From NCBI RefSeq assembly GCF_037038585.1, contig NC_092556.1, positions 386,619-450,618 of the forward strand: a stretch of 64,000 bases of DNA, in the 5' to 3' direction. Shown in pieces: positions 7,805 through 50,088 of this stretch. The notes under the pieces are model-generated. The model worked only from the letters and a program-made list of their open reading frames with translations, searched no databases and was not told the DNA's origin. Both the position numbers and the translations under genes were made by a program. Origin of the DNA: Patagioenas fasciata (Eukaryota). The number at the start of each line of letters is the position of its first letter. Positions within the stretch are counted from its first letter, which is position 1.

Positions 7805-7909
7805 TCATTCTCCCTCTTTGTCCTCGCCATGCGTTATCACGTAGCAGATGTTCTTGTAATCCACGTTGCCGGCCACGTCGGGGGGAAACGCCGCCCACAT
7901 GTTCTTGAT
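7805..7909 (-). CDS. MYLPF: MYLPF exon 7 ([34 protein letters not shown], stop)
   Basis: Acceptor cccccccccag|ATCAAGAAC. The stop codon TGA is at 7805-7807 on the minus strand. Confidence 0.9.
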
Positions 7910-21840: not shown

Positions 21841-21850
21841 GATTTTGGGG

Positions 21851-22011
21851 TCAGCAGGGCGGTTTCTGGGCGCCGCGGCGCGCGGGCCCGGGCGGGAAGA
21901 GCTCCACGGGGTCCTGCCCGGTGCGCAGCAGCTGCTGCTCCAGCGCCTGGTGCCGCTTCATGTCCCACAGCACCTTGTCCAGCGCCGCCCGCCGCGACAC
22001 GCGGCCCGGGC
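21851..22011 (-). CDS. PAGR1: PAGR1 exon 3 (..[30 protein letters not shown].., stop)
   Basis: Acceptor tgttgcag|GCCCGGGCC. The stop codon TGA is at 21851-21853. This matches the C-terminal block of human PAGR1. Confidence 0.85.
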
Positions 22012-28000: not shown

Positions 28001-28838
28001 CTCAAATTTTCCCCAAATTTCCCTCAAATTTCCCCAAATTTCCCTCACATTTTCCCCAAATTTCCCCTCAAATTTCCCCAAATTTCACTCAAATTTCCCC
28101 CAAATTTCTCCCCAAATTTTCCCCAAATTCCCCCCAATTTTCCCTGAAATTTCCCCAAATTTCCCTCAAATTTTCCCCAAATTTCCCCTCAAATCTCCCC
28201 CAAATTTTCCCCAATTTTTCCCCAAATTTCCCCTCAAATTTCCCCCAATTTTCCCCCAAATTCCCCCCAAATTTCCCCTCAATTTCCCCCAAATCTCCCC
28301 CCAATCTCCCCCCGATCCCCCCCAGTCCGCACTTGTGCGGGGGCAGGGCGGGCCGCTCGTCGTGGCGCTGCGGCTCGGGGGGCTCCTGGGGGTGGGGGGT
28401 GGGGGGCCGGCGGGGCCGGGAGCCCCCCCGCAGGCGCAGGGTCCCGTGCCGCTCGATCAGCTCCAGCAGGCGCCGCAGCTCGGGGGGCGCGGGCGCCCAG
28501 CCCCCGCCTTCCTCCTCCTCCTCCTCCGCGTCGCTGCACGGGACGCACCAATCGGCGCCCTCCTTGTCCCAATCGGCGCCCTCCTTGTCCCAATTAGCGC
28601 CTTCGTTACCGCAATTAGCGCCTTCGTTACCGCAATTAGCGCCCTCGTTACCCCAAGGGGCGTCCTTCCGGTCCCAAGGGGCGTCCTTCCGGTCCCACGG
28701 GGCGTCCTTCCGGTCCCACGGGGCGCCCTTCCGGTCCCACGGGGCGCCCTTCCGGTCCCAAGGGGCGCCCGGGGGGTCCTCGCCGCCCGTCATGGCCGCC
28801 GGGCTGGGGGAGGCGGGAGCGGCGGCCTCGGCCGCCAT
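21851..28838 (-). CDS. PAGR1: PAXIP1-associated glutamate-rich protein 1 (PA1), complete CDS in 3 exons, about 251 aa
   Basis: Minus-strand exons: 28333-28838, 23701-23789, 21851-22011. Translation: [33 protein letters not shown](WDRK..)...[156 protein letters not shown]. From recall it aligns with human PAGR1 over [95 protein letters not shown]. Length and exon number agree with human PAGR1. Confidence 0.82.
22001..22330 (-). other. PAGR1: About 60 bp unit in about 6 copies, each reiterating the PAGR1 exon 3 splice acceptor plus the first about 11 nt of the exon (ACGCGGCCCGGGCCTGCAAC on the plus strand)
   Basis: The motif is at 22001, 22061, 22121, 22181, 22241 and 22301, with a further copy at 22861. 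Only the 22001-22020 copy joins the real exon. Confidence 0.85.
22340..23480 (+). repeat. 13-bp satellite GGGGGAGATTTGG / GGGGAAATTTAGG (PAGR1 intron 2)
   Basis: Direct reading. Confidence 0.9.
23701..23789 (-). CDS. PAGR1: PAGR1 exon 2 ([31 protein letters not shown])
   Basis: Acceptor tctgtgcccag|GCCGCGGG and donor GCGCACG|gtgaggcccc. This matches the human [23 protein letters not shown] block. Confidence 0.85.
23800..27160 (+). repeat. Largest array: about 155 copies of the 21-22 bp C-rich unit CCCCCCAAATCGCCCTCACAAT (alternating CACAAT / CCCAGC variants), 3.4 kb in PAGR1 intron 1
   Basis: Direct reading. Confidence 0.92.
27160..28320 (+). repeat. Satellite CCCCAAATTTCCCYCAAATTT variants (PAGR1 intron 1)
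   Basis: Direct reading. Confidence 0.85.
28333..28838 (-). CDS. PAGR1: PAGR1 exon 1 (Kozak gcagccATGG; ends ..PPH + AA|gtgcgg)
   Basis: The ORF starts at 28838. The acidic [15 protein letters not shown] and [15 protein letters not shown] segments match PAGR1. The donor was chosen as the only GT that keeps frame with exon 2, and it is a weak donor (gtgcgg). An acceptor-like ccctccatttgcag lies immediately 5' of the ATG, which suggests an upstream non-coding exon. Confidence 0.72.
28540..28760 (-). repeat. PAGR1: In-frame coding 21-bp minisatellite inside PAGR1 exon 1: (APWDRKG/D) x5, (NEGANCG) x3, (DKEGADW) x2
   Basis: Plus strand reads ggtcccacggggcgcccttcc x5, ttaccgcaattagcgccttcg x3 and tcccaatcggcgccctccttg x2. 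All units are 21 bp, so the frame is preserved into the conserved DWCVPCSD block. Confidence 0.85.
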
Positions 28839-28969
28839 GGCTGCAAATGGAGGGTTAATTAGCTTAGAACTGCGTTAATTACAGAGAGAAACGGGCGGTT
28901 TCACTCAGGAATGGGTTAATTAATTCATACGTTCCGTTGTTTGCCGTGGAAATGGGGGTTTAGCTTCGG

Positions 28970-32940: not shown

Positions 32941-33051
32941 ATGCCGTCGCTCAGCCCCACGGATCCCGGGTTGTTCCGCCCCGAAGACCCCGAGACCCTG
33001 TTTGGGGACCTATGGGAGATCGGGCACGGCAGCTTCGGCGCCGTCTACTCC
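32941..33051 (+). CDS. TAOK2: TAOK2-like coding exon 1
   Basis: gcgcgATGCCG (purine at -3) through TACTCC|gtgagt. Encodes [37 protein letters not shown], including the glycine-loop GxGxxG. Confidence 0.85.
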
Positions 33052-36000
33052 GTGAGTGCCGCCCCATAGCCGCCCCATAGCCGCCCCATAGCCGCCCCAT
33101 AGCCGCCCCATAACGTCCTGCACCCCCCATCAGGCCCGGGACCTTCGCACTAACGAGCTCGTCGCGATTAAGAAAATGTCCTATGGGGGGAAACGATCCG
33201 ATGAGGTAATGGGGGGGGGTTGGGGAAGGGACCCAGGCGTCCGGGAGGGGACCCAGGCGTCCGGGCCCCACGGATCCGTGGGTCTGCCCCCCAGAAATGG
33301 CGCGACATCGTGCGCGAGGCGTCGCTGCTGCAGCGCCTGCGCCACCCCAACATCGTGGCCTTCCGGGGCTGCTACCTGCGGGGCCACACGGCCTGGGTGA
33401 GCGACCCACAAGTGTGGGGCGGGACCCATAAGTGTGGGGTGGGACCCATAAGTGTGGGGCAGGGGGGAGTGGGGTTGGAAATGGGGGTTTGGGGAGGGTT
33501 TGGGGGCTCAGAAATGGGGGTTATGGGGGGATGTTGGGACCCATAAGTGTGGGGCAGGACCCACAAGTGTGGGGCAGGGGGGAGTGGGGTCGGAAATGGG
33601 GGTTTTAGGAGGGTTTGGGGAGGGTTTTGGGGCTCAAATGTGGGTTATAGGGGGATGTTGGGGCCCGTAAGTGTGGGGCAGGACCCATAAGTGTGGGGCA
33701 GGACCCATAAGTGTGGGGCGGGACCCATAAGTGTGGGGCAGGGGGGAGTGGGGTCGGAAATGGGGGTTTTAGGAGGGTTTGGGGAGGGTTTTGGGGCTCC
33801 AATGTGGGTAATGGGGGGATGTTGGGGCCCATAAGTGTGGGGCTGGACCCATAAGTGTGGGGCAGGGGGGAGTGGGGTTAGAAATGGGGGTTTTGTGAGG
33901 GTTTGGGGGCTCAGAAATGGGGTTTTGGGGGTGGGTTTGGGACCCATAGATGTGGGGCAGGGGGTGTTGGGCCCCATAAGTGTGGGGCAGGACCCATAGA
34001 GGTGGGGCAGGGGGTGTTGGGCCCCATAAGTGTGGGGCTGACCCATAGATGTGAGGCAGGGGGTGTTGGGCCCCATAAGTGTGGGGCTGACCCATAGATG
34101 TGGGGCAGGGGGTGTTGGGCCCCATAAGTGTGGGGCTGACCCATAGATGTGAGGCAGGGGGTGTTGGGCCCCATAAGTGTGGGGCTGACCCATAGATGTG
34201 GGGCAGGGGGTGTTGGGCCCCATAAGTGTAGGGGAAGGACTTGGGGCCCAGAAATGGGGCTTTGGGGGGCACTGGGACCCCCAAATGTGGGGCAGGGGGT
34301 GTTGGGCCCCCTAAGTGTGGGGCAGAGGGTTGTCGTGCCCCACATCTATGGGGCAGGCCCGCTCTCCCTAGCTGGCCATGGAGCGCTGCCTGGGCTCGGC
34401 CGCCGACCTGCTGGAGGGTGAGTGCCGTGGGGCGGCGCTGTGGGGCAGCCCCACAGATCCCGGAGCTCACCCCCCAACCTCTGCCCCACAAGTGCACAAG
34501 AAGCCGCTGCGGGAGGCGGAGATCGCGGCCATCAGCCAGGGGGCGCTGCGCGGCCTGGCCTACCTGCACCGCCTGGGGGTCGTCCACAGGTCAGCCCCAT
34601 AGATCGACCCATAGATCGACCCATAGGTCCCGCCCCATAGGTCCTGACCCATAGCGGGACCCACAGCACCTGTTGTATTGGTTTCTCTGGGTCTTTTCTT
34701 GTGCTTGTTGGTCCCGCCCCATAGGTCCCGCCCCATAGATCCCGACCCATAGATCCCGCCCCATAGATCCCGCCCCATAGATCCCGCCCCATAGCGGGAC
34801 CCACAGCCCCCGTTGTGTTGGTTTCTCTGGGTCTTTTCTTGCTTGTGCTGGTCGGACCCGCCCCATAGGTCCCACCCCATAGATCCCGCCCCATAGGTCC
34901 CACCCCGTAGATCCCGCCCCATAGATCCCGACCCATAGCGGGACCCACAGCCCCCGTTGTGTTGATTTCTCTGGGTCTTTTCTTGCTTGTGCTTGTTGGA
35001 CCCGCCCCATAGGTCCCGCCCCATAGGTCCCGACCCATAGATCCCGACCCATAGATCCCGCCCCATAGATCCCGCCCCATAGCAGGACCCACAGCCCCCG
35101 TTGTGTTGATTTCTCCGGGTGTTTTCTTGCTTGTGCTGGTCGGTCCCACCCCATAGATCCTGACCCATAGATCCTGACCCATAGATCCCGCCCCATAGAT
35201 CCCGCCCCATAGCAGGACCCACAGCCCCCGTTGTGTTGATTTCTCCGGGTGTTTTCTTGCTTGTGCTGGTCGGTCCCACCCCATAGATCCTGACCCATAG
35301 ATCCCGACCCATAGATCCCGCCCCATAGATCCCGCCCCATAGCAGGACCCACAGCCCCCGTTGTGTTGATTTCTCCGGGTGTTTTCTTGCTTGTGCTGGT
35401 TGGTCCCACCCCATAGATCCTGACCCATAGATCCCAACCCATAGATCCTGACCCATAGCGGGACCCACAGCCCCCATTGTGTTGGTTTCTCTGGGTCTCC
35501 CCTTGCTTGTGTTTGTTGGTCCCGCCCCATAGGTCCCGCCCCATAGGTCCCGCCCCATAGATCCCACCCCATAGGTCCCGCCCCATAGGTCCCACCCCAT
35601 AGATCCCACCCCATAGATCCTGCCCCATAGCAGGACCCACAACCCGTGTTGTACGGATTTCTCTGCTTCTTTTCTTGCCCCACTGATTCTGCCCCACATT
35701 CTCTACTGTGCCCCACAGCTCCTGCCCCACTGATCCCACCCCACTCATCTCTGGCCCCACAGCTCCTGCCCCGCTGATCCTGCCCCACAGCTTCCGCCCC
35801 ACTGATCCCACCCCACTCCTCTCCCTCTTCTCTGCCCCACAGCTCCTGCCCCACTGCTCCTGCCCCACTGATCCCACCCCACTTCTCTCCCTCTTCTCTG
35901 CCCCACTGATCCCGCCCCACTGATCCTGCCCCACTTATTTCCCTATTCTCTGCCCCACAGATCCCGCCCCACTGATCCCGCCCCACTGATCCCGCCCCAC

Positions 36001-39000
36001 TGATCCTGCCCCACTCATCTCCATAATCTCTGCCCCACAGCTCTTTTGCTTCTTCTCTGCCCCACTGACCCCGCCCCACTGACCCCGCCCCACTGACCCC
36101 GCCCCACAGCTCCTGCCCCACTGACCCCGCCCCACTGACCCCGCCCCACTGACCCCGCCCCACGGCTGCTGCCCCACTGACCCCACCCCACAGCTCCCGC
36201 CCCACAGCTCCTGCCCCACTGACCCAGCCCCACTGACCCAGCCCCACAGCTCCCGCCCCACTGACCCCGCCCCACAGCTCCCGCCCCACAGCTCCCGCCC
36301 CACAGCTCCTGCCCCACTGACCCCGCCCCACTGACCCCGCCCCACTGACCCCGCCCCACTGACCCCGCCCCACGGCTGCTGCCCCCAGGGACGTGAAGGC
36401 CGGGAACATCCTGCTCAGCCCCACAGCCCAGGTCAAACTCGGCGACTTCGGCTCCGCCGCCACGGCCGCCCCGGCCGGGGCCTTCGTGGGGACCCCCTAC
36501 TGGTGAGAGACCCACACGTGTGGGGCTGGGACCCCCAAGTGTGGGGCTGGGACCCCCAAGTGTGGGGCTGGGACCATAGAGCGGCTGGGAGTGGGGGTTG
36601 CGACCCCCAAGTGTGGGGCTGGGACCCCCAAGTGTGGGGCTGGGACCATAGAGTGGCTGGGAGTGGGGGTTGTGACCCCCAAGTGTGGGGCTGGGACCCC
36701 CAAGTGTGGGGCTGGGACCATAGAGTGGCTGGGAGTGGGGGTTGTGACCCCCAAGTGTGGGGCTGGGACCCCCAAGTGTGGGGCTGGGACCATAGAGTGG
36801 CTGGGAGTGGGGGTTGTGACCCCCAAGTGTGGGGCTGGGACCCCCAAGCGTGGGGCTGGGACCATAGAGCGGCTGGGAGTGGGGGTTGTGACCCCCAAGT
36901 GTGGGGCTGGGACCCCCAAGTGTGGGGCTGGGACCATAGAGCGGCTGGGAGTGGGGGTTGTGACCCCCAAGTGTGGGGCTGGCCCCACACCCCAGCCCCG
37001 CTCCCTGCCCTGCCCCCGCCCCGCCCACAGTGCTGCCCCACACCCCTGCCCCACACCCCGCCCCCTGCCCCGCCCCCAGTGCTGCCCCGCCCCCCTGCCC
37101 CCCTGCCCCACCCCCAGTGCTGCCCCGCCCCCCTGCCCCCCTGCCCCGCCCCCAGTGCTGCCCCGCCCTCCCCACCCCGCCCCACACCCTCACCCCACAC
37201 CCCTCCTCACACCCCCACCCCACACCCCCGCCCCACAGCCCCCACCCCTGCCCCCCACCCTGCCCCACAACCCCACCCCACACCCCCCCCACCCTGCCCC
37301 GCCCCCCAGCCCCGCCCCACGTCCCTGCCCCACACCCCTGCCCCACATCCCCCCCCCACCCCTGCCCCACACCCCCCCCACCCCCGCCCCTGATCCCCGC
37401 CCCTGCCCCACACCCCCACCTCCCATCTTGCCCCACACCCCCGCCCCACACCCCTCCCCACACCCCCGCCCCATCACCGCTGCCCCACACCCCCGCCCCA
37501 CATCCCTCCCCACACCCCTGCCCCACACCCCTGCCCCACACCCCTGCCCCACACCCCGCCCCCAGTGCTGCCCCGCCCCCCCTGCCCCCGCCCCGCCCCC
37601 AGCGCTGCCCCGCCCCCTGCCCCACACCCCGCCCCATCACCGCTGCCCCACAGCCCCGTCCCACACCCCGCCCCCTGCCCCCCGCCCCGCCCCACGCGCG
37701 CTGTCCCCAGGATGGCCCCCGAGGCGATCGTGGCTCCGGACGGGCGGGCGAGCGACGGCAGAGCCGACGTCTGGGCCCTGGGCATCACCTGCATCGAGCT
37801 GGGTGAGACGTGACCCCTGACCCTGACCCTGACCTCTGACCCCTGACCCCTGACCCTGACCCCTGACCCTGACCCCTGACCCACGGCTGACCCGTGACCC
37901 TGACCCACGGCTGACCCATAGCTGACCCACGGCTGACCCACAGCTGACCCACGGCCCTGCCCCATGGTTGACCCATAACCTTGACCCATAGCTGACCCAT
38001 AGCCCTGACCCACAGCTGACCCATAGCCCTGACCCACAGCTGACCCACGGCTGACTCATAACCCTGACCCACAGCTGACCCACGGCTGACCCACAGCCTG
38101 ACCCATAGCCCTGACCCATAGCCTGACCCACATCCTGCCCCATGGCCTGACCCATAGCCTGACCCACAGCTAACCTATGGCTGACCCATAGCCCTGCCCC
38201 ATAGCTGACCCACGGCTGACCCATAGCCCTGACCCATAGCTGACCCACAGCCTGACCCACAGCCTGACCCACAGCCAGAGCCTGACTCACAGCCACCCCA
38301 TAGCTGATCCACATCCTGACCCACATCCTGACCCACATCCTGACCCACATCCTGACCCACAGCCCTGAGCCACAGCCCTGACCCACATCCTGCCCCATAG
38401 CCTGACCCACAACCTGACCCACAGCCAGAGCCTGACCCACATCCACCCCACATCCACCCACATCCCTGACCCACATTCAACCCACACCCACATCCACCCC
38501 ACAGCTGCCCCACATCTCCCCTCACACCCCACCCCCCACCCCACCCCACCCATTGTTGGGGTCTCGTTCCTGTTCCAATTGGGGGGCGGCGGGCGGGGGC
38601 GGTTCTGGGGCTGCTGTGGGGCTGCCCCCCCGCTCTGCCCCACACATCCCCCCCCGCTCTGCCCCACACATCCCCCCCGCTCTGCCCCACACATCCCCCC
38701 CCGCTCTGCCCCACACATCCCCCCCCGCTCTGCCCCACACATCCCCCCCGCTCTGCCCCACACATCCCCCCCCGCTCTGCCCCACACATCCCCCCCCGCT
38801 CTGCCCCACACATCCCCCCCCGCTCTGCCCCACACATCCCCCCCGCTCTGCCCCACATATCCCCCCCGCTCTGCCCCACACATCCCCCCCGCTCTGCCCC
38901 ACACATCCCCCCCGCTCTGCCCCACACATCCCCCCCGCTCTGCCCCACACATCCCCCCCGCTCTGCCCCACACATCCCCCCCGCTCTGCCCCACACATCC

Positions 39001-42000
39001 CCCCCCGCTCTGCCCCACACATCCCCCCCGGCTCTGCCCCACACATCCCCCCCGGCTCTGCCCCACACATCCCCCCTGCTCTGCCCCACACATCCCCCCC
39101 GCTCTGCCCCACACATTCCCCCCCGCTCTGCCCCACCCCCCGCTCAGCCCCACCCCCCGCTCAGCCCCACCCCCCGCTCAGCCCCACCCCCCGCTCAGCC
39201 CCGCCCCCCCGCTCAGCCCCGCCCCCCCGCTCAGCCCCGCCCCCCCGCTCAGCCCCGCCCCCCCGCTCAGCCCCGCCCCCCCGCTCAGCCCCGCCCCCCC
39301 GCTCAGCCCCGCCCCCCCGCTCAGCCCCGCCCCCCGCTCAGCCCCGCCCCCCGCTCAGCCCCGCCCCCCGCTCAGCCCCGCCCCCCGCTCAGCCCCGCCC
39401 CCCGCTCAGCCCCACCCCCCCGCTCAGCCCCACCCCCCGCTCAGCCCCACCCCCCGCTCAGCCCCACCCCCCCGCTCAGCCCCACCCCCCGCTCAGCCCC
39501 ACCCCCCGCTCAGCCCCACCCCCCCGCTCAGCCCCACCCCCCGCTCAGCCCCACCCCCCGCTCAGCCCCACCCCCCCGCTCAGCCCCACCCCCCGCTCAG
39601 CCCCACCCCCCGCTCAGCCCCACCCCCCCGCTCAGCCCCACCCCCCCGCTCAGCCCCACCCCCCCGCTCAGCCCCACCCCCCGCTCAGCCCCACCCCCCC
39701 GCTCAGCCCCACCCCCCCGCTCAGCCCCACCCCCCGCTCAGCCCCACCCCCCGCTCAGCCCCACCCCCCGCTCAGCCCCACCCCCCCGCTCAGCCCCACC
39801 CCCCCGCTCAGCCCCACCCCCCCGCTCAGCCCCGCCCCCCGCTCAGCCCCGCCCCCCGCTCAGCCCCGCCCCCCGCTCAGCCCCGCCCCCCGCTCAGCCC
39901 CGCCCCCCGCTCAGCCCCGCCCCCCGCTCAGCCCCGCCCCCCGCTCAGCCCCGCCCCCCGCTCAGCCCCGCCCCCCGCTCAGCCCCGCCCCCCGCTCAGC
40001 CCCGCCCCCCGCTCAGCCCCGCCCCCCTGCCCCCCAGCGGAGCGGAAGCCCCCCCTGTTCCACATGAACGCCATGAGCGCCCTGTACCACATCGCACAGA
40101 GCGCCCCCCCCCGCCTGCACGGGACCCAATGGTGAGCGTAGGACGCCTGGGTCCCTTGGGGCACTCCTGGGTCCCTCCCGAACTCCTGGGTCCCTCCCGA
40201 ACTCCTGGGTCCCCCCCGAACTCCTGGGTCCCCCCCCGAACTCCTGGGTCCCCCCCCGAACTCCTGGGTCCCTCCCGAACTCCTGGGTCCCTCCTGAACT
40301 CCTGGGTCCCTCCTGAACTCCTGGGTCCCCCCCGAACTCCTGGGTCCCCCCCCGAACTCCTGGGTCCCTCCTGAACTCCTGGGTCCCCCCCCAAACTCCT
40401 GGGTCCCTTGGGGCACTCCCGGGTCCCTGGGGCACTCCCGGGTCCCTTGGGGCACTCCTGGGTCCCTTGGGGCACTCCCAGGTCCCTGGGGCACTCCTGG
40501 GTCCCTGGGCCACTCCTGGGTCCCTTTCCCCCCTCCCCTGGGTCCCTTGGGGCACTCCCGGGTCCCTGGGGCTCTCCTGGGTCCCTGGGGCACTCCTGGG
40601 TCCCTTTCCCCCCTCCCCTGGGTCCCTTGGGGCACTCCCGGGTCCCTGGGGCACTCCCGGGTCCGTGGGGCACTCCTGGGTCCCTTTCCCCCCTCCCCTG
40701 GGTCCCTTGGGGCACTCCCGGGTCCCTGGGGCACTCCTGGGTCCCTGGGCCACTCCTGGGTCCCTTTCCCCCCTCCCCTGGTTCCCTTGGGGCACTCCCG
40801 GGTCCCTGGGGCACTCCCAGTTCCCTTGGGGCACTCCTGGGTCCCTTGGGGCACTCCTGGGTCCCCGGGGCACTCCTGGGTCCCTGGGGCACTCCTGGGT
40901 CCCTGGGGCACTCCCGGGTCCCTTGGGGCACTCCTGGGTCCCTGGGGCACTCCCAGTTCCCTTGGGGCACTCCTGGGTCCCTGGGGCACTCCCAGGTCCC
41001 TTGGGGCACTCCTGGGTCCCTTGGGGCACTCCCGGGTCCCTGGGGCACTCCTGGGTCCCCGGGGCACTCCCGGGTCCCTGACGGGGTCCCAGGTCCCCGT
41101 GTTTCGGGGGGTTCGTGGCTTCGTGTCTGCAGAAGCGGCCGCAGGAGCGCCCCACGGCCCAGGAGCTGCTGCAGGTGCCTCGTTAGCGCCAATTAGCGCT
41201 CATTAACGCTCATTAACGCTCGTCGCCCCTCATCGCCCCTCATTGTCCCCTCGTTACCCCGGTACCCCCTCAATTGCCCCATCGAGCCCCGTTATCCCGT
41301 TAATTACCCCACTGATCCCCATTATACTGTTAATTATCCCCATTGATTCCCGTTATCCCCATTATCCCATTAATTACCCCATTTATCCCCATTATCCCAT
41401 TAATTACCCCATTGATCACTATTATCCTATTTATTATCCCCATTGATTCCCAGTGTCCTTATTATCCCATTAATTACCCCATTGATCCCCATTATCCTGT
41501 TAATTATCCCCATTGATTCCCATTGTCCTTATTAACCCATTAATTACCCCATTGATCCCCATTATCCTGTTAATTATCCCCATTGATTCCCATTGTCCTT
41601 ATTAACCCATTAATTACCCCATTGATCCCCGTTATCCTGTTAATTATCCCCATTGATTCTGGTTATCCCCATTATCCCGTTAATTACCCCATTGATCCCC
41701 ATTGTCCTGTTAATTATCCCCATTGATTCCCGTTATCCCCATTATCCCATTAACTACCCCATTGATCCTCATTATCCTGCTAATTATCCCCATTGATTCC
41801 CATTGTCCCCATTATCCCATTAATTACCCCATTGATCCCCATTATCCTGTTAATTATCCCCATTGATTCCCATTGTCCCCATTATGCCATTAATTACCCC
41901 ATTGATCCCCATTATCCTGTTAATTATCCCCATTGATTCCCGTTATCCCCATTATCCCATTAATTACCCCATTGATCCCCATTATCCTGTTAATTATCCC

Positions 42001-44491
42001 CATTGATTCCCGTTATCCCCATTATCCCATTAATTACCCCATTGATCCCCATTATCCTGTTAATTATCCCCATTGATTCCCGTTATCCCCATTATCCCAT
42101 TAATTACCCCATTGATCCCCATTATCCCATTAATTATCCCCATTGATTCCCGTTATCCCCATTATCCCATTAATTACCCCATTTATCCCCATTATCCCAT
42201 TAATTACCCCACTGATCCCCATTATCCTGTTAATTATCCCCATTGATTCCCATTGTCCTTATTAACCCATTAATTACCTCATTGATCCCCGTTATCCTGT
42301 TAATTATCCCCATTGATTCCGGTTATCCCCATTATCCCGTTAATTACCCCATTGATCGCCATTATACTGTTAATTATCCCCATTGATTCCCATTGTCCCT
42401 ATTATCCCATTAATTGCCCCATTGATCCCCATTATCCCATTAATTACCCCATTCATTCCCATTGTCCCCATTATCCCATTAATTACCCCATTGATTCCCA
42501 TTACCCCATTAATTACCCCCATTGATCCCTATTATTCCATTAATTAGCCCCATTGATCCCCATTATCTCCATTATCCCGTTAATTATTGATCCCCATTGA
42601 TCTCAATTACCCCGTTAATTACCCCATTGATCTCCATTATCCCATTAATTACCCCATTGATCCCCATTATCCCATTAATTACCCCATTGATCCCTGCTAT
42701 CCCAGTAATTACCCCCATTGATCCCCATTGACCCCATTATCCCATTAATTACCCCTATTGACCCCCATTGATCCCATTAATTACCCCCGTTGATCCCATT
42801 AATTATCCGTGTTATCCCATTAGTTACCCCATTCATACCCATTATCCCATTAATTACCCCATTGATCCCCGTTACCCCGTTAATTACCCCATTAATTACC
42901 CCATTACCCCGTTAATTACCCCATTAATTACCCCATTACCCCGTTAATTACCCCATTAATTACCCCATTGCCCCGTTAATTACCCCGTTGACCCCGTTAC
43001 CCATCGATCCCATTCATTCCTTCATCCCCCCCATTCCCCCCTTCTCCCCTCACCCCATTGGCTCACTCTGCCCTTTGGCCCCGCCCCTTTCTCCAGCACC
43101 ACTTCCTGCAGAGGCCCCGCCCCCCGCGCGTGCTCCTGGATCTGATTGGCCGAGCCCAGGCGGCCGCGCGGGCCCTGGACCAGCTGCACCTGCGGCCAAT
43201 CAGGAAGCTGCTGCTCCCGGAAGGCCCCGCCCCCGGCCCCGCCCACCAGGTTCGTGGGGGGCGATTTTGGGGACGTTTTGGGGGAATTTGGGGACATTTT
43301 GGTCACCTTTCCGGACCCATTGTCCCTGTGGGGTGGCCCCATTGGCCCCATTGACCCCATGGGGCATCCCCAAGGTCCCGTTGACCCCATTGGGGTCCCC
43401 ATTGACCCCCATGTCCCCATTGTCCCCATTGGGGTCCCCATTGACCCCTTGGGCTCCGTTGACCCCCCAGGTGTCCTCATTGACCTCATTGTCCCCATTG
43501 GGGTCCCCATTGTCCCCTTGGGCTCCATTGACCCCCCATGTCCCCGTTGTCCCCAGTGTCACCTCCTGAGCTCCCATTGTCCCCATTGACCCCACAAGGT
43601 CCTATTGACCCCCATGTCCCCATTGTCCCGTTGGGTTCCATTGACCCCATGGGACATCCCCAAGGTCCCATTACCCCTATTGGGGTCCCCCATTGTCCCC
43701 CATTGTCCCCATATCCCCATTGGGGTTCCCATTGTCCCCTTGGGCCCCATTGACCCCATGGGACGTCCCCAAGGTCCCATTGTCCCCATTGACCCCATTG
43801 TCCCCATGGGACGTCCCCATTGACCCCACAAGGTCGCATTGACCCCCATGTCACCATTGGGGTCCCCATTGTCCCCTTGGGCCCCATTGACCCCATGGGA
43901 CGTCCCATTGTCCCCATTGACCCCACTGACCCCATGGGACGTCCCATTGTCCCCATTGACCCCATTGACCCCATGGGACGTCCCATTGTCCCCATTGACC
44001 CCATTGACCCCATGGGACGTCCCATTGTCCCCATTGACCCCATGGGACGTTCCATTGTCCCCTTGGGCCCCATTGACCCCATGGGACGTCCCCAAGGTCC
44101 CATTGTCCCCATTGTCCCCATGGGATGTCCCATTGTCCCCATTGACCCCACAAGGTCCCATTGACCCCATTTGTCCCCATTGGGGTCCCCATTGTCCCCT
44201 TGGGCCCCATTGACCCCATGGGACGTCCCCAAGGTCCCATTGACCCCATGGGACGTCCCCGATGTCCCCATTGACCCCATGGGATGTCCCCAATGTCCCC
44301 AGGGGGCGGAGCCCGCCGGCAGCCCCGAGCGCAGCCATTGGCCGCCCAGCGCGTCCGTCAGCGAATCGAGCGGCAGCAGCGGTGCCAGTGCGGCCAATGA
44401 CGACGGTGACGGTGACGACGGTGACGGTGACGACGGTGACGGTGACGACGGGGATGAGGAAGGGCCCCCATTGGCCGCCCCGCACCCGCCC
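32941..44491 (+). CDS. TAOK2: TAO-family Ser/Thr kinase (TAOK2-like), N-terminal 11 coding exons covering the kinase domain through the acidic region; C-terminal exons not found
   Basis: Plus-strand exons: 32941-33051, 33134-33205, 33295-33396, 34372-34417, 34493-34589, 36389-36502, 37711-37802, 40038-40131, 41093-41174, 43097-43249, 44303-44491. All are GT..AG and phases are consistent. The first exon starts at an acceptor at 32858, with 5'UTR before the ATG at 32941. Translation begins [361 protein letters not shown]...[12 protein letters not shown]. It is collinear with my recall of the human TAOK1/2/3 kinase domain. The acidic tract followed by EEGP and the 16p11.2 synteny favour TAOK2. 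Confidence 0.82.
33134..33205 (+). CDS. TAOK2: TAOK2-like coding exon 2 ([24 protein letters not shown])
   Basis: Acceptor ccatcag|GCCCGG and donor GATGAG|gtaatg. VAIKK contains the catalytic lysine. Confidence 0.85.
33295..33396 (+). CDS. TAOK2: TAOK2-like coding exon 3 ([34 protein letters not shown])
   Basis: Acceptor ccccccag|AAATGG and donor GCCTGG|gtgagc. Confidence 0.85.
33400..34340 (+). repeat. Satellite about 21 bp GACCCATAAGTGTGGGGCAGG with an about 125-160 bp higher-order period (TAOK2 intron 3)
   Basis: Direct reading. Confidence 0.85.
34372..34417 (+). CDS. TAOK2: TAOK2-like coding exon 4 ([15 protein letters not shown])
   Basis: Acceptor ctctccctag|CTGGCC and donor GGAGG|gtgagtgc. 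Confidence 0.82.
34493..34589 (+). CDS. TAOK2: TAOK2-like coding exon 5 ([33 protein letters not shown])
   Basis: Acceptor ccccacaag|TGCACAAG and donor CCACAG|gtcagc. Confidence 0.82.
34590..35700 (+). repeat. About 125 bp unit in about 8 copies (CCCCATAGRTCCCGCC blocks plus TTGTGTTGGTTTCTCTGGGTCTTTTCTTGCTTGTGCTGGTCGG) in TAOK2 intron 5
   Basis: Copies are near 34670, 34805, 34945, 35100, 35220, 35340, 35465 and 35640. Confidence 0.85.
35700..36370 (+). repeat. Satellite CCCCACTGACCCCGCCCCACAGCTCCTG (TAOK2 intron 5)
   Basis: Direct reading. Confidence 0.85.
36389..36502 (+). CDS. TAOK2: TAOK2-like coding exon 6 ([10 protein letters not shown]...DFGSA...VGTPYW)
   Basis: Acceptor ctgcccccag|GGACGTG and donor CTACTG|gtgagaga. 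Carries the HRDVKAGN and DFG motifs. Confidence 0.85.
36510..36970 (+). repeat. 63-bp unit in 7 copies (ACCCCCAAGTGTGGGGCTGGGACCCCCAAGTGTGGGGCTGGGACCATAGAGTGGCTGGGAGTGGGGGTTGTG), starting 8 nt after the TAOK2 exon 6 donor
   Basis: Direct reading. Confidence 0.9.
36970..37700 (+). repeat. C-rich low-complexity repeat CCCTGCCCCACACCCC (TAOK2 intron 6)
   Basis: Direct reading. Confidence 0.8.
37711..37802 (+). CDS. TAOK2: TAOK2-like coding exon 7 ([30 protein letters not shown])
   Basis: Acceptor ctgtccccag|GATGGCC and donor GAGCTGG|gtgagacg. Carries the APE motif. Confidence 0.85.
37810..38500 (+). repeat. 12-13 bp satellite CTGACCCACAGC / CCTGACCCATAGC (TAOK2 intron 7)
   Basis: Direct reading. 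Confidence 0.85.
38640..40020 (+). repeat. 23-bp satellite CTCTGCCCCACACATCCCCCCCG (38640-39120), then 16-17 bp CTCAGCCCCACCCCCCG in about 55 copies (39120-40020) (TAOK2 intron 7)
   Basis: Direct reading. Confidence 0.9.
40038..40131 (+). CDS. TAOK2: TAOK2-like coding exon 8 ([32 protein letters not shown])
   Basis: Acceptor ctgccccccag|CGGAGCGG and donor CCAATG|gtgagcgt. Confidence 0.85.
40140..41080 (+). repeat. GAACTCCTGGGTCCC / GCACTCCTGGGTCCCTGGG satellite (TAOK2 intron 8)
   Basis: Direct reading. Same family as 441-1310. Confidence 0.9.
41093..41174 (+). CDS. TAOK2: TAOK2-like coding exon 9 ([27 protein letters not shown])
   Basis: Acceptor ggggtcccag|GTCCCCG and donor CTGCAG|gtgcct. 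Matches the human [24 protein letters not shown] block. Confidence 0.78.
41240..43000 (+). repeat. 60-bp AT-richer satellite in about 28 copies, CCCCATTGATTCCCGTTATCCCCATTATCCCATTAATTACCCCATTGATCCCCATTATCCTGTTAATTATC (TAOK2 intron 9)
   Basis: Direct reading. Confidence 0.9.
43097..43249 (+). CDS. TAOK2: TAOK2-like coding exon 10 ([51 protein letters not shown])
   Basis: Acceptor ctttctccag|CACCAC and donor CACCAG|gttcgt. Matches the human [42 protein letters not shown] block. Confidence 0.8.
43300..44290 (+). repeat. 9-bp-based satellite CCCATTGACCCCATGGGACGTCCCATTGTCC (TAOK2 intron 10)
   Basis: Direct reading. Confidence 0.85.
44303..44491 (+). CDS. TAOK2: TAOK2-like coding exon 11 (Ser-rich then (DGDGDD)n acidic tract, ..[12 protein letters not shown])
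   Basis: Acceptor aatgtccccag|GGGGCGGAG and donor CCGCCC|gtgagtcc. Corresponds to the human [21 protein letters not shown] region. Confidence 0.65.
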
Positions 44492-44639
44492 GTGAGTCCA
44501 GGAGGGTCCCAAAAACCCCCAAAATGGGTTAAAACGCCCCAAAAAGGCCCCAAAATGTGGTTGAGACCCCAAAGAAACCTCTGGGAGGGATTAAAGGGTC
44601 GGGGGCTCTTTAAGAAACTGGTGGGTGGGGCTTAGGGGG

Positions 44640-44890
44640 TGGGGTTTGGGCTTGCGGCCAATCAGCTGCTGAGGAGGCCATGGGGGGCTGTTTAAGGACA
44701 AGGGGGCGGGGCTTGAGGGGGGGGCGGGGCTTGGGGGGGGTGGAGTTTGGGGGGTTTGTAGAACCTGATTGGTCAGAGGGTTCTGGGCGTCTGATTGGTC
44801 AGAAGGCCCTGGGAGGTCCATATAAGGTGGTGGGCGGGGTCTGAGAGGGGATTGGACAAGAGCTTAAAGGGGGCGGAGCTAAAGGGGTTG
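44640..44890. promoter_or_regulatory. Promoter-like motif cluster: CCAAT gcggCCAATcag about 44656, two inverted CCAAT (tgATTGGtcag, twice), a CArG/TATA element CCATATAAGG about 44818-44827, and GC boxes gggggcggggc
   Basis: Unique sequence downstream of the last TAOK2-like exon found. Motifs only; no transcript evidence. Confidence 0.25.
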
Positions 44891-45449
44891 TAGTTGTTCC
44901 CTATGGAGGGGGGGGAGCGTTTGGGGCCCCCAAAAACCCCTAAATGAGCCCAAAATTGACCCCGAAACCCACGGGGGGGGCTGGAAATGGCCCAAAATAC
45001 CCAAAAAGTGCTGAAAACGCCCCAAACCCACCCAAAATAGCCCAAAAAACACCCCAAGAACACCCCCAAAAATCCCTCAGATCAGCCTGAAAAGGGCTCG
45101 AAAATCACACAAACTGACCCAAAATGGACCCAAAATGGACCCAAAACAGCGCAAATTCAACCCAAAAATGCGAGGGGGTTCAAGGGGGGGTTTGTGCCCC
45201 TATTTCCAGATTTCGGGTGCAATTTTGGGGTGATCTGTGTGGTTATTGGAGCGTTTTGGGGTCTCGGAGCCCCAAAAGCGTGGGATTTTGCCCCAATTTC
45301 AGGCGGAGGACCAGGAGCCTCCTCCGGTCGGCGCTAACGAGGCTGCGGAGCAATTAGCGGCGCGGTTAACGAAGCCGCGCGAGCGGGGCGGCCCCGGAGG
45401 CGACCCGGGGACCCCAAATGCCCGGCGTTTCGCCCCAAATTCCAGCGTT

Positions 45450-46090
45450 TCCCGCCCAAATTCCCTCCGGCTTCACCCCCATTGCCCCCCCAGTTCCCCC
45501 CATTCCACCCCCAATTCCCCCTATTCCACCCCCAATTTCTCCCCCATTTCCCCCCCAGATTTCCCCCCCAGTTCCCCCATTGGTCCCCCCAGTTCCACCC
45601 CCACTTTCTCCCCCATTGATCCCCCCACTGATCCCCCCATTGATCCCCCCACTGATCCCCCCATTGATTCCCCCATTGATCCCCCCAGTTCCCCCATTAA
45701 GCCCCCCAGTTTGACCCCCAAAAATCCCCCCAGTTCCCCCATTGATCCCCCCAATTCCACCCCCACTTTCCCCCCCATGAACCCCATTGATCCCCCCATT
45801 GGCCCCATTGACCCCATTGGCCCCATTGACCCCATTGGCCCCATTGACCCCATTGATCCCATTGACCCCATTGGCCCCATTGATCCCATTGGCCCCATTG
45901 GCCCCATTGACCCCATTGACCCCATTGGTCCAATTGGCCCCATTCATCCCATCGGCCCCATTCATCCCATTGGCTCCATTGGCCTCATTGATCCCATTGG
46001 CCCCATTGACCCCATTGGCCCCATTGACCCCATTGACCCCATCGACCCCATCGACCCCATCGACCCCCTCGACCCCATTGCCCCCCTCGA
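45450..46090 (+). repeat. 6-12 bp satellite CCCCATTGATCC / CCATTGGCCCCATTGACC
   Basis: Direct reading. Confidence 0.85.
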
Positions 46091-47039
46091 CCCCCTTGCC
46101 CCCATCCCCCCCCCTCCCCTCCCCGCCCTCCCCAAGCCCCGCCCCCCGCCCCTCCCCCCCGCTCTCCCATTGGCCACCGCCCTCGCCGCCCTTTACCTCC
46201 GCCCCTCCCTCCCCCTCCTCCTCCTCCTCCTCCTCCTCTGGCTCCTCCCCCGCGCCGGGCGCGGCCCCGTGGGGGGCGGAGCCATGGGCGTGGCCTTGGC
46301 GCTGACCCTCCCGGAGCCCTCCTGGCGCCTGGGGCTGGCGGCCCTGGGCGCGGGGGCGGGGCTTTGGCCGCTGCTGGGGGCGCTGCCCCCCGGCCCCCGC
46401 GCCTGCGCCCCCGCGCTGCTGCTGGCGGCGCAGCTGCTGCGCTGGCCCTGCCTCTTCCTGGCCGCCTACCTGCTGGGGGCGGGGGGCCGGGGGGCGCTGG
46501 GGGGCGGCGGGGGGCGCCTGCAGCGCTGGCTCTTCCGGGGGGTGCTCGGCCTGCCCCCCCCCGTTTTCCGCCTCCTTTCCCGCCTGGGCTTGGTGGCCGA
46601 AGGGCGTTTCGCCCAAATCTTCCCCAAAACGCGGCCCCGTTGGGGCTTCCGCTCCCGCCTGCCCGTCCCCCGGCGCCGGCCCGCCCCGCCCCCCCCGCCC
46701 CTCCCCCTGCGCCTCTGGCGCCGCCTCCGCAGGGCTTGGGGGGAGGGGTGGGCGTGGGGGAGGGGGAGGGGGTGGGGGAGGGGGAGGGGAAGGGGGGGGG
46801 GAGCCCCCCAGCCGCATCCCACGCCCCGCCCCCCGCCCCCCCGCGGGGCCCCCAGGGAGGGGGGGAGGGGCCAGAAGCCCAGCGGGGGGGGCGGGGAGGG
46901 GAGCGGGGGCTCCGCCCCCGAGGAAACCGTGGAGGTGATGGAGGCCCCGCCCCCGCGGGGAGGAGGAGCCAATGGGGGGGGGGGGAGGGGAGGGGAGGGG
47001 AGGGGGGGTGGGGCGAGAAGGGCGGGAAAGGGGGGGGGA

Positions 47040-48100
47040 TTTGGAAATTGGGAAATTGGGAAAATGGGAAAATGTTGAAAATTTCCCAGGATTTTGGAAA
47101 TTTGGAGAATGGAAAAATTGTGGAGATTTCCCAAGATTTTGGAGATTTGGAAATTTTGAGTTTTCCCAAGATTTTGGAAATTTGGAAATTTGGAAAGTTT
47201 GAATTTTCCCAAGATTTTGGAAATTTGGAATTTTCCCAAGATTCTGAAAATTTGGAAATTTGTAAAGTTTGAATTTTCCCAAGATTTTGAAAATCTGGAA
47301 ATTTTGAATTTTGCCAAAATTTTGGAAATTTGGAAAGTTTGAATTTTCCAAGGTGTTGAAAATGTGAACATTTTGGAAATTTGGGAGCTTTCCAAGGTTT
47401 TGAGAATTTGAAACTTTTGAATTTGTCCAAAAGTTCAGGAATTTTGAAAATTTTCACAGGTCAAGATTTGGAAGAATTTGAAAAATTTTAAAATTGAAAA
47501 CTTTTGAACATTTTTAGAATTGAAAATCTTGTAAATTTTGAGGTTTTTTAGAATTGGAAATGGTGGAAATTTGGAGAATTGAAAATTTGGAAGATGTCGG
47601 AAATTTTTAGAATTGGAAATTTTGCAGATTTGAAGAATTTTAGAATTGGAAAGTTTGAAAAAGTTTTAGAATTGAAAATTTGGAAGATTTTTAGGATCAA
47701 AAATCTTGAAAATTTTTAGACTTTGAAATTTTGAGAATTTTGAAAACTTTTAGAGCTGAAAATGTTGGAAATTTTTAAAATGAAGAATTTTGAATAACGA
47801 AAATTTTTAGAATTGAAAAATCGAAGCATTTTTAGAATTTTTAAAATTTAAAAATCAAACTCTTGGCAAATTTTTAAATTTTGGAAAATTTTTAAAATTC
47901 AAAAATAACCTTGAAAATGTGAGAAATTTCAACATTTTTTAAATTTCAAATGGAAATTTTGGAAAATTTTGACCGGCTTGAGATTTTTAAAATTTAAAAA
48001 TTGCGATTTTTAAAAGTTTTGTATTTTGGGGAAATTTTTAACATTTGAAATTTTGAAATTTTCAAACTTGAACAAATGGAAATGTAAAGAATTTAAAAAT
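47040..48100 (+). repeat. AT-rich satellite (GGAAATTTGGAAATTTTGAATTTTCCCAAGATTTTGG and degenerate GAATTTTAGAATTGGAAA units), a compositional outlier
   Basis: Direct reading. Confidence 0.85.
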
Positions 48101-48780
48101 GCATCAAATTGGCCAAAGCCGAATTTGGGGCAGAAATGGGGAATTGGAGGGGAAAGGGGGAATTTTGGGGCTCAAAAGCCTCATTTTGGGGCCCAAAATC
48201 CATCGTTTGGGGGCAAAAAAACCTCAAATTTGGGGCCAAATAGAAGAATTGGGCCCTGAAAACTCCAATTTTGGGGCTAAAAGCTCTGATTTTGGGGTGA
48301 AAAACCCTGATTTTGGGACCCGAACCCCGCACATTTTGGGACCCAAACCCCCCAGTTATTTTGGGGCCAAAAATCCCTGATTTGGGGGCAAAAAAAATCC
48401 CCAAATTTGGGGCTAAAAATCCCGAAATTTTGGGGCGGAAAACTCTAATTTTGGGAGCCGAAAATTCCCAATTTTGGGACCTGGAAACCCCCGATTTTGG
48501 GGCCGGAAACCCCAATTTTGGGGGCACAAAAACTCTAATTTTAGGGGTGAAACCCCCAGGTTTTGGGGCGGAAACGCTCGATTTTGGGTCAGAAATCCCT
48601 AATTTGGGGTCAGAAATGGTTCATTTGGGGACTCGAAGCCCAAATTTGGGGCCAGAAATCGACGAATTTGGGGCCAGGAATCGACAATTTTGGGACCCAA
48701 ACCCCCCCAATTTGGGGCCAAAAAGCCCGAATTTGGGGTCCGGGACCCCCCGAATTTTGGGGCGATTTCTCCCTTTTCCA
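48100..48780 (+). repeat. About 40 bp satellite AATTTTGGGGCCAAAAMCCCYGATTTGGGGC
   Basis: Direct reading. Confidence 0.8.
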
Positions 48781-48959
48781 TCATTTTGTGTCATTTTTGG
48801 TTCATTTTCCCCGGTTTATTTTATTTTGTGTCCAATAGAATTATTTAATTCTCCCCAAATTCTTCATTTTTCGGTGTTTTTGGGGGGAGGGGCACCCATG
48901 GGGGGGGGGAGGGGCCTGGTGACGTCATCAACGGGGGCGGCCAATGGGGACCCAACGAT

Positions 48960-49450
48960 CGCCCCACAGGGACTCAACGTGAGCCAATGGGGAGCGAGGA
49001 GTGGGTGAGGGAGCCAGCGGTCAGCCAATGGGGAGCAAGAGGCGGGTGAAGGGGCCAATGGGGAGCCAGCGATGAGCCAACGGCCAATGGGGAGCCAGCG
49101 GGGTCTTGGTGGGGACACGGGGAACCAATGGGGAGCAAGAAGTGGGTGAGGGAGCCAATGGGAACCCAACGATGACCCAACAGCCAATGGGGAACCAATG
49201 GGGTCTTGGTGGGGACTCAATAGCCAATGGGAACCCAACGATGACCCGACAGCCAATGGGGAGCCAATGGGGTCTTGAGGGGGCCACAGGGAACCAATGG
49301 GGACCAAGAGGTGGGTGAGGGAACCAATGGGGAGCCAGCGATGACCCAACGGCCAATGGGGAGCCAATGGGGTCTTGAGGGGGACATGGGGAACCAATGG
49401 GGAGCAAGAGGTGGGTGGGGGAACCAATGCTGACCCCACATTGACCCCAA
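48960..49450 (+). repeat. About 60 bp satellite rich in GCCAATGGGGA (NF-Y-like CCAAT boxes)
   Basis: Direct reading. Confidence 0.8.
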
Positions 49451-49799
49451 TGACCCCACATTGACCCCATTGCTGACCCCACATTGACCCCAGATGTGTG
49501 GGGCAGGGGGTCCCCAACCCCCCATATGCTCCCCCCACCACCCCCCCTCCCATTTTTATCCACTTTAATTAAAACCTCAATTAACCCCCGATCATTTGCG
49601 AGGCCACGCCCACTTCGCTCCCGAACGCCTGGGTCCACCCGGAAGGGGGGGGGGGGGGGGCGGTTAATTAAGGGTCTAATTAAGGGTCTGGGCGGGCGGG
49701 GAGGCCCGGGGGGGGGCGGGGAGGCCCGGGGGAGGGGGGTGGCCCGGGGGGGGGCGGGGAGGCCCGGGGGGGGCGGGGTTAATTAGCGGCTCGTTAATT

Positions 49800-50039
49800 A
49801 CTCACGTCAATCAGCGCCTCTTCCCGCGTCGCCATGGGAACGGCGGGCGGGGCGGGCGGGACCGCGGCGCCGCGCGCGGGGGATGCCGGGAAGGAGAAAT
49901 GGGGAGGGGGGGGAGGTGAGCGCGGCGCTGATTGGTGGCGGGGAGGGGGGAGCGCGGCGCTGGTTGGCTGGGAGGGGGGAGGGCGGGGCGCGGCGCGGTC
50001 ACGTGGGGGGCGGGGTTAAAGGCGGCGCGGAGCGGGGCC
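49800..50039 (+). promoter_or_regulatory. CDIPT: CDIPT TATA-less GC-rich promoter region (inverted CCAAT gctgATTGGtgg about 49926-49937, E-box CACGTG 50000-50005, multiple GC boxes)
   Basis: Unique GC-rich sequence immediately 5' of the CDIPT ATG at 50040, with housekeeping-type motifs. Confidence 0.45.
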
Positions 50040-50088
50040 ATGGGGGGGAAGGGGGAGAACGTCCTGCTGTTCGCGCCCAACGTCATCG
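50040..50088 (+). CDS. CDIPT: CDIPT exon 1 (MGGKGENVLLFAPNVIG)
   Basis: ggggccATGG start, then ATCG|gtaacg. A GC-box and E-box promoter lies upstream. Confidence 0.85.

Follow-up and report, generated by a model that had tools for sequence, protein, structure and literature searches.

TAOK2 is an autism-risk kinase of the 16p11.2 region, and the roles of its coiled coil and of the alpha-isoform tail that engages the endoplasmic reticulum (ER) and microtubules are still being separated experimentally. The stretch of DNA analyzed here (64,000 nucleotides of Patagioenas fasciata, assembly GCF_037038585.1, contig NC_092556.1, positions 386,619 to 450,618 of the forward strand; “the window” below, with position 1 being its first letter) carries a TAOK2 gene directly upstream of CDIPT. 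It raises the question of how much of the kinase is encoded between the exon for the acidic tract, which ends at 44491, and the first exon of CDIPT. An initial annotation had proposed that the C-terminal two thirds of the protein are lacking. What the gene is without is instead roughly its middle third, and the tail of the alpha isoform is present. The interval is likely to consist of intron 11, a long terminal coding exon of avian TAOK2 (linker, alpha tail and end peptide), satellite DNA from 47.0 to 49.5 kb that is 3' untranslated region (UTR) or intergenic, and the CDIPT promoter, with the coiled-coil middle of the protein absent.

A search of the literature found no description of avian TAOK2 architecture. 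The architecture is already contained in one NCBI passerine model (Vidua, 864 amino acids) and is unannotated in pigeons, a parrot and a honeyguide.

Exons 1 to 11 and the kinase domain

Exons 1 to 11 of TAOK2 occupy 32941 to 44491 of the plus strand and were delimited by tblastn and manual splice-site work. All eleven conform to the GT-AG rule, each has a counterpart in the NCBI model of Caloenas nicobarica (Nicobar pigeon) TAO2 (P0001, 457 amino acids), and together they encode 384 amino acids. The initial annotation had the exon count, the kinase domain, the acidic tract and the gtgagt donor right, and erred in the length (about 420 amino acids). The exons, all placed by a GT-AG model, are as follows.

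32941 to 33051, plus strand: exon 1, with the ATG at 32941 (also tblastn; equivalent to P0001 residues 1-41)
33134 to 33205, plus strand: exon 2, with the VAIKK lysine (Caloenas model match)
33295 to 33396, plus strand: exon 3 (Caloenas model match)
34372 to 34417, plus strand: exon 4, followed by a 75-nt intron
34493 to 34589, plus strand: exon 5
36389 to 36502, plus strand: exon 6, with HRDVKAGN, DFG and the activation loop
37711 to 37802, plus strand: exon 7
40038 to 40131, plus strand: exon 8
41093 to 41174, plus strand: exon 9
43097 to 43249, plus strand: exon 10, the helix following the kinase domain (Caloenas model match)
44303 to 44491, plus strand: exon 11, a Ser-rich and acidic D/G tract ending in phase 0, with a gtgagt donor at 44492 (Caloenas match)

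The best protein matches to the gene are from Columbiformes, namely Caloenas nicobarica (84%) and a Columba livia fragment (92%), and the DNA probably belongs to a microchromosome. The Pfam Pkinase domain is complete (profile positions 6-263 of 263, E = 2e-59), and the catalytic motifs of TAO kinases, as read from the gene model, are all there: the VAIKK lysine, HRDxKxxN, DFG and GTPYWMAPE. The nearest solved structures are those of the rat TAO2 kinase domain (1u5q and 2gcd, E = 1e-136), followed by TAO3 (6bdn). Between the window and Caloenas, the ratio of nonsynonymous to synonymous substitution rates (dN/dS) for the kinase exons is 0.20.

A probable terminal exon with a TAOK2-alpha-type tail

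The exon ending at 44491 had been taken to be the last. Exon 12 begins at 45303 (tttcag|GCG), and its acceptor is not only conserved but is used in the NCBI Caloenas model, which joins exon 11 to the equivalent site. About 60 nt of intron upstream of the acceptor also matches Caloenas, and the sole indel in the exon head is 3 nt. P0001 extends 63 residues past the acidic exon, and its next exon corresponds to 45309-45380 of the window. In Patagioenas the splice 44491^45303 would be expected. The features of intron 11 and of the terminal exon are given here.

44492 to 45302, plus strand: intron 11, 811 nt, with CCCAAAA-type repeats; its 3' end is conserved with Caloenas
45303 to 45400, plus strand: exon 12 head, matching P0001 residues 397-420; the acceptor, CCCCAATTTCAG|GCG, is identical in Caloenas
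45400 to 46136, plus strand: Pro-rich linker of in-frame 9-, 12- and 33-66-bp tandem repeats (CCCCATTGA and others, ‘PIDPIGPID’; TRF)
46137 to 46700, plus strand: TAOK2-alpha-type hydrophobic tail (phmmer, BLASTP, hydropathy, dN/dS)
46182-46238, 46329-46385, 46416-46472 and 46542-46598, plus strand: hydrophobic segments of the tail, four 19-mers from a crude Kyte-Doolittle scan; the true number of transmembrane helices may differ
46647-46670, plus strand: FRSRLPVP motif of the tail
46701 to 46797, plus strand: basic/Trp segment, equivalent to the amphipathic helix; a G-run block follows at 46755-46800, where the reading frame has to change
46798 to 46938, plus strand: C-terminal peptide ‘...APPPRKPWR’ (to 46935) and stop, in frame +1 relative to the tail
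46810-46821, plus strand: SxIP motif (SRIP)
47076 to 47078, plus strand: stop codon of the tail frame as assembled

The frame that starts at 45303 is open for 592 codons, to 47078. It aligns in a single frame with 21222-23402 of the Caloenas locus (746 columns, 44.5% identity), and no other frame stays open over this stretch in all three of the window, Caloenas and Vidua. A minus-strand open reading frame (ORF) of equal length in the window is interrupted in Caloenas. From the acceptor to the tail the ORF is open in every species compared, namely Caloenas (locus L001), Vidua (L002), the parrot Pezoporus (L005) and the honeyguide Indicator (L006).

Only satellites and a GC-rich block had been noted after 44491. 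Both the tandem repeats and an 80% GC block (46.1-46.95 kb) do exist, but the block is homologous to the TAOK2-alpha tail. Exhaustive phmmer with 46197-46775 against 1.84e9 representative proteins gave four matches, three of which are of TAOK2 type: a Vidua chalybeata TAO2-like cluster (6e-12), an alpha-tail protein (P0122) that starts at the alpha-specific junction ‘VRQQPKSLK|V...’ (7e-11), and TAO2 isoform X1 of the caecilian Geotrypetes seraphini (1132 amino acids, 5e-4). The fourth (P0123, 2.6e-5) is an unrelated repeat protein. In the reverse search, real alpha tails matched only the ORF 45303-47078 among the six frames of the window (3e-14, 2.5e-16 and 6e-7), with coverage of about 190 residues (46137-46700), and composition-corrected BLASTP of the tail gave 1e-15 and 4e-21. 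The elements kept include ‘PWLFLPLYLLG’, ‘RWWLR.LLGLPPP.F’ and several hydrophobic 19-mers. The tail is recognizably conserved across four bird orders and has a dN/dS of 0.37 over 197 codons between the window and Caloenas.

Note that tblastn with composition correction and the SEG filter masks the tail match, and tblastn negatives were for this reason not trusted. Note also that the human TAOK2-alpha, TAOK2-beta, TAOK1, MYLPF and CDIPT sequences served as leads only, and conclusions on the tail rest on database proteins; the N-terminus used for human TAOK2 was later confirmed by a database protein (P0004).

In human TAOK2-alpha, six ER-membrane helices lie at 941-1066 and an amphipathic helix at 1146-1162, followed by a microtubule-binding tail with an SxIP motif at 1192-1195 (PMC8699727). 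The alpha and beta isoforms have residues 1-745 in common (PMC11014455). The hydrophobic tail is alpha-specific and does not occur in TAOK1, TAOK3 or TAOK2-beta (PMC8699727), and the gene of the window, which has it, is set apart from TAOK1 and TAOK3 by this feature.

The end peptide has counterparts in the caecilian (‘EKPSRIPRLL...RRPPPWR*’) and in Indicator (‘...ALPPWR*’). The peptide and its stop are present in five birds (those of the window, Caloenas, Vidua, Indicator and Pezoporus), and SRIPRP and the stop immediately after PWR are kept in pigeon, passerine and honeyguide.

The terminal exon would thus have four parts. Its head is probably what is left of the ‘QEGEHTVTSNSSVIHRL’ exon, which comes next after the acidic tract elsewhere among vertebrates, as judged from its position and from the parrot sequence ‘SSPSSIFHQL’. 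A proline-rich, fast-evolving linker of about 245 amino acids, made of in-frame minisatellites, would follow; the 12-bp and 9-bp tandem repeats at 45.47-46.10 kb translate as PIDPIGPID-like proline-rich repeats. The third part would be the multi-pass hydrophobic domain with the basic amphipathic segment, which are unique to the TAOK2-alpha isoform, and the fourth the alpha C-terminus with SxIP, ending in ‘KPWR-stop’. The predicted long product is about 930-975 amino acids. By homology it would be a catalytically equipped STE20/TAO kinase that is tail-anchored in the ER membrane without a coiled-coil bundle, and its C-terminus may contact microtubules and EB proteins, given its homology to the human regions described in PMC8699727.

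Absence of the coiled coil

A long coiled-coil region is a trait of the TAO kinase family (the ‘thousand and one’ architecture) and was not found in the window. The initial annotation had seen no ORF for it, and this was borne out: the coiled-coil parts of five real TAOK proteins, searched with phmmer --max against six frames of the whole 64-kb window, gave a best E of 4.4. The same queries matched a scaffold of Calidris pugnax (ruff) at 1e-17 to 1e-42. They were without a match in the Caloenas, Vidua, Pezoporus and Indicator loci as well, and C-terminal queries of beta type and TAOK1 type matched no frame of the window. The locus is missing the central coiled coil, about 300-450 amino acids, and the beta-type C-terminal exons too. 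In a lizard (Phrynocephalus) the coiled coil is encoded by five to six exons that lie between those for the acidic tract and the tail and take up 6.4 kb, whereas the corresponding gap in the window is 1.6 kb of intron and repeats. The lizard locus has no CDIPT within 5 kb downstream and is uninformative for ancestral synteny.

The suggestion that diverged, GC-biased exons had escaped recognition was accordingly right for the linker and alpha tail of the terminal exon, and wrong as to the coiled coil, of which the locus contains nothing. Alignment within 44.5-50 kb likewise recovered exon 12 with the alpha tail and none of the coiled-coil exons.

The order of kinase, acidic tract, lineage-specific repeat linker, alpha tail and CDIPT is found again in Caloenas, Vidua, Pezoporus and Indicator. 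Over about 21.8-54 kb, including 44.9-46.95 and 48.2-50.1 kb, the chromosome-level Caloenas assembly and the window are collinear. Residues 348-864 of the Vidua NCBI isoform X1 (864 amino acids) are encoded by a single terminal exon of 517 codons, linker and tail together, with CDIPT directly after it. In Pezoporus and Indicator an unannotated tail ORF lies between a short TAOK2 model and CDIPT.

Evidence against a long product

Several observations weigh against the long product proposed above. In the window the tail and the end peptide are offset by +1, and offsets are also seen in Caloenas (+2) and Vidua (+1). A canonical intron does not repair this, since no GT-AG pair of at least 40 nt joins the tail and SRIP..PWR frames in the window or in Caloenas, and Vidua has only weak candidates. 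Each shift falls within a homopolymer run of G, C or T (window 46755-46800, L001 at about 22940-23050, L002 at about 23600-23750); the window has a C8 run near 46692-46699 and a G10 run near 46788-46797. In Indicator and Pezoporus the tail and the SxIP peptide share one frame. The Indicator sequence ‘YWLLGRAWGWGKEWAGKLW’ supports the tail frame of the window, leaving the G-run block at 46755-46800 as the place of the shift. Programmed frameshifting was considered and is unlikely: size and place vary, the site is always a homopolymer, and Indicator and Pezoporus have no shift. For the same variation between species, and the constant position in homopolymer runs, consensus indel errors are the likeliest cause, and in vivo the tail and end peptide would then be read in one frame.

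The linker is the part of the gene whose coding status is least certain. It shares a satellite family with intron 10, its repeats by their very make-up leave two of the three frames open, and its dN/dS between the window and Caloenas is about 0.77; it could therefore be intronic, or merely tolerated. The CCCCATTGA-type 9-bp satellite fills intron 10 (43334-44301) and part of the linker (45773-46105), so that the linker seems to have been built from, or invaded by, local intronic satellite. From one order to the next the linkers show no relationship, being of PIDP type in pigeons, of NPISS type in Vidua, of APEGHR type in Indicator and of SPSLSP type in Pezoporus, and each is open in frame. The repeat linker is presumed to be translated. 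Separately, the satellite of intron 7 (38369-40037, with a 17-bp-type unit and 84% GC at 39-40 kb) forms an open frame of more than 580 codons into exon 8, and long ORFs thus arise easily in such repeats.

At the activation-loop serine, which we take to be the activating phosphorylation site S181 of TAOK2, the window has alanine (codon GCC at 36480-36482). Caloenas has serine at this position (TCC), as do all other birds examined, and rat 1u5q reads PANSFVGTPYW. The difference is a single T-to-G change in exon 6, which could be either a true loss of the phosphosite, as a lineage variant, or a base error. Finally, a word-indexed protein search with the tail as query found no match.

The remaining adverse evidence comes from annotation. 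NCBI TAOK2 models are short in Caloenas (457 amino acids), zebra finch and Lonchura (317-398), Pezoporus (349) and Indicator (346), and all of these omit the tail. The zebra finch and Lonchura models end by read-through of the acidic-exon donor, as do two intron-less, mRNA-like passerine Logan contigs (P0050 and P0086). In the window, read-through past 44491 is open for 48 codons. The Caloenas model leaves exon 12 at a GTAGGT donor and ends on a mini-exon of 17 amino acids (‘..SQWGARNG*’) equivalent to about 48975-49008 of the window; this donor was considered as the basis of a short isoform and is missing from the window.

Alternative explanations

Taken at face value, these models would mean that the gene yields nothing but a kinase-only protein, whose end lies in intron 11 or on a small distal 3' exon, and that linker, tail and end peptide are an untranslated, decaying relic. 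The read-through contigs, the frame broken in three assemblies and an ATTAAA at 44590, just within intron 11, all agree with this. We nevertheless consider it improbable, because the tail is kept over four bird orders under a dN/dS of 0.37 between two pigeons, SRIPRP and the stop after PWR survive in pigeon, passerine and honeyguide, no species interrupts the ORF between acceptor and tail, the frame is unbroken in Indicator and Pezoporus, and a long NCBI model exists in Vidua. The Pezoporus model, moreover, stops (L005 13390-13407) at ‘GCT|GTGAGTTGA’, where it reads into a consensus GTGAGT donor, and is for that reason an annotation artefact. The short models of species with a tail ORF (Pezoporus, Indicator and Caloenas) look like annotation truncations. 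From the zebra finch and Lonchura models and the passerine contigs, a kinase-only isoform ending in or just past intron 11 is probable, and it probably coexists with the long form. A rearranged or misassembled locus had also been proposed, and the satellite density and extreme GC content of the region, like the homopolymer-type frame inconsistencies at 46.7-46.8 kb, would suit a collapse or misjoin that removed coiled-coil exons from the repeat-rich 44.5-46.1 kb. This is exceedingly improbable. Between exon 10 and CDIPT the independent Caloenas assembly and the window are collinear; four further species from three further orders have the same layout without a coiled coil, which makes misassembly very unlikely; and in both pigeons a single frame leads from the exon-12 head straight into linker and tail.

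The initial annotation further offered a truncated paralogue with a short 3' exon. The short exon has some backing in the kinase-only models and read-through contigs, and the paralogy in Calidris, whose scaffold KQ482927 carries a conventional TAOK2 with coiled-coil exons. The gene of the window would then be an old avian paralogue (a ‘mini-TAOK2-alpha’) that kept kinase and alpha tail and lost the coiled coil, with conventional TAOK2 elsewhere in bird genomes, often unassembled or lost. We regard this as possible though doubtful. It concerns the identity of the gene and not the content of the interval, and is compatible with the anatomy given above. The C-lobe of Calidris TAOK2 is 93% identical to caecilian and lizard TAOK2, and only 64-75% identical to the genes of six other birds. 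A 1.4-kb contig of 68% GC from run ERR7220462 carries a coiled-coil exon that shares with Calidris the sequence ‘HFSTIRTASLVTRQQ..SGYQRMRRQHQKQLLGLE..’ and the derived HFST, SGYQRMRR, QLLGLE and AAAA.ADKLARRHQAI. This is most likely a goshawk (Accipiter) Hi-C run, as its number comes right after goshawk 10X runs ERR7220458-61 and right before the brimstone-moth runs, which begin at ERR7220463. Calidris at least, on an isolated scaffold, has a conventional, slowly evolving TAOK2 with coiled-coil exons, and Accipiter very probably has one too. A neighbor-joining tree sets the CDIPT-adjacent bird genes, including that of chicken, on one long branch without Calidris, contradicting the species tree. 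Such a tree fits an old duplication, and it also fits rate heterogeneity, with long-branch attraction and GC-biased substitutions that arose convergently (K to R, S to A). The divergence comes in degrees, with Pezoporus and Gallus nearer to Calidris, and no species examined shows both copies. For Caloenas, and in its most recent zebra finch annotation, NCBI uses the name ‘TAO2’ for the gene beside CDIPT. The neighbors in the window are genes of the 16p11.2 block (a PAXIP1_C-domain gene, probably PAGR1; CDIPT; MYLPF), although the immediate neighbors of human TAOK2 are presumably TMEM219 and HIRIP3 rather than these. Lastly, only one bird-like coiled-coil contig was found among the Logan-derived matches. 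The protein search with the Calidris coiled coil returned short fragments only; its listing was apparently limited to proteins of at most about 1.75 times the query length, and it could not have revealed full-length bird TAOK2s.

Relation to known TAOK2 proteins

Human TAOK2-alpha (1235 amino acids), described as an ER-microtubule tether (Nourbakhsh et al. 2021, PMC8699727), resembles the predicted product in its STE20/TAO kinase and acidic/Ser-rich tract, in a multi-pass hydrophobic tail encoded in a long terminal exon, in the basic/Trp amphipathic segment and, if the end peptide is read together with the tail, in the SxIP motif and ‘..PWR’ end. Unlike it, the gene of the window has neither the coiled coil (human residues about 450-745 and beyond) nor beta-type exons at the locus. 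A Pro-rich minisatellite linker stands in place of the alpha-specific acidic spacer, and the segment from ‘GFRSRLPVP’ to SxIP is shortened to G/R-rich low complexity. Its sequence has also evolved much faster, the two kinase domains being about 60% identical, and its activation loop has alanine.

The closest annotated counterpart in architecture is the Vidua chalybeata TAO2-like isoform X1 (XP_053789224.1, 864 amino acids, Gnomon). It has the same domain order, with linker and tail in one terminal exon directly upstream of CDIPT; its P/S/N-rich linker, of ‘NPISSTQNLIS’ type, is unrelated, and its tail is 46-49% identical. The model continues in the tail frame and so misses the SRIP..PWR peptide. 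Caloenas TAO2 is an orthologue, with 84% identity over exons 1-11, the same exon-12 acceptor and a collinear locus. It differs from the reading given here in the exit from exon 12 described above; its tail ORF is in the DNA and unannotated. TAO2-like proteins of Geotrypetes (XP_033800693, 1132 amino acids), Phrynocephalus and Calidris have the kinase and acidic tract of the window, and the caecilian and lizard share the alpha tail. Unlike the window, conventional sauropsid and amphibian TAOK2 has five to six coiled-coil exons between the acidic and tail exons.

Birds thus seem to offer a natural deletion series, in which kinase and membrane/SxIP tail stay under purifying selection without coiled coil or beta exons. 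That kinase and tail are retained without the coiled coil argues that a tethered-kinase function can stand alone, and the compact bird forms could serve as constructs for testing this. Somewhat more speculatively, and on balance we think it unlikely, birds may hold two TAOK2 lineages: a slow, conventional one with coiled coils (ruff, probably goshawk) and a fast CDIPT-adjacent kinase/alpha-tail gene with lineage-specific minisatellite linkers. Birds would then assign to separate genes the jobs that mammals split between isoforms alpha and beta. Under orthology, by contrast, the coiled coil would have been deleted independently in several bird orders, with the ER anchor retained each time. In practical terms, automated avian TAOK2 annotation is truncated in several species (models of 346-457 amino acids without the tail in pigeon, parrot and honeyguide), and ‘satellite’ or ‘low-complexity’ DNA on GC-rich microchromosomes can code for protein.

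Remaining features of the window

Between the terminal exon and CDIPT the following features were recorded.

47039 to 48100, no strand assigned: AT-rich satellite, 27% GC, periods 8-93 bp; presumed 3' UTR or intergenic
48161 to 48738, no strand assigned: 21-23-bp tandem repeat (AATTTTGGGGCCAAAAATCCCC), collinear with Caloenas
48981 to 49429, no strand assigned: array of a 100/169-bp CCAATGGGGAGC repeat (CCAAT repeat array)
49500 to 50039, plus strand: CDIPT promoter, CpG-rich, collinear with Caloenas 28332-28895
49568, plus strand: ATTAAA, a possible distal poly(A) signal of TAOK2
50040 to 50088, plus strand: CDIPT exon 1 (MGGKGENVLLFAPNVIG)

The initial placement of the start of CDIPT agrees with that of its exon 1 at 50040, and CDIPT is found in the same relative place at all four of the other bird loci (L001, L002, L005 and L006). 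No Rfam family and no tRNA was found in 43-51 kb. On the minus strand, 48815-48849 holds an ATTAAA and a pair of AATAAA signals, some 0.7-1 kb upstream of the CpG island of CDIPT. Their placement would be in keeping with a short antisense transcript that leaves the CDIPT promoter head to head. We take it that human has such a transcript in CDIPT-AS1/CDIPTOSP.

The window as a whole is GC-rich, satellite-laden DNA. A MYLPF-like gene (fast skeletal myosin light chain) of six exons lies on the minus strand at 7808-14530, with 60-88% identity per exon to the human protein. In Vidua the EF-hand gene is instead located downstream of CDIPT, so that gene order differs between pigeon and passerine. Positions of about 21780-22060 (L001 1219-1499) are collinear with the start of a minus-strand Caloenas gene that has a PAXIP1_C domain and is probably PAGR1. 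Upstream of TAOK2, 24000-27000 is a 3-kb strand-asymmetric satellite with a GC skew of about -0.8 and 67% GC.

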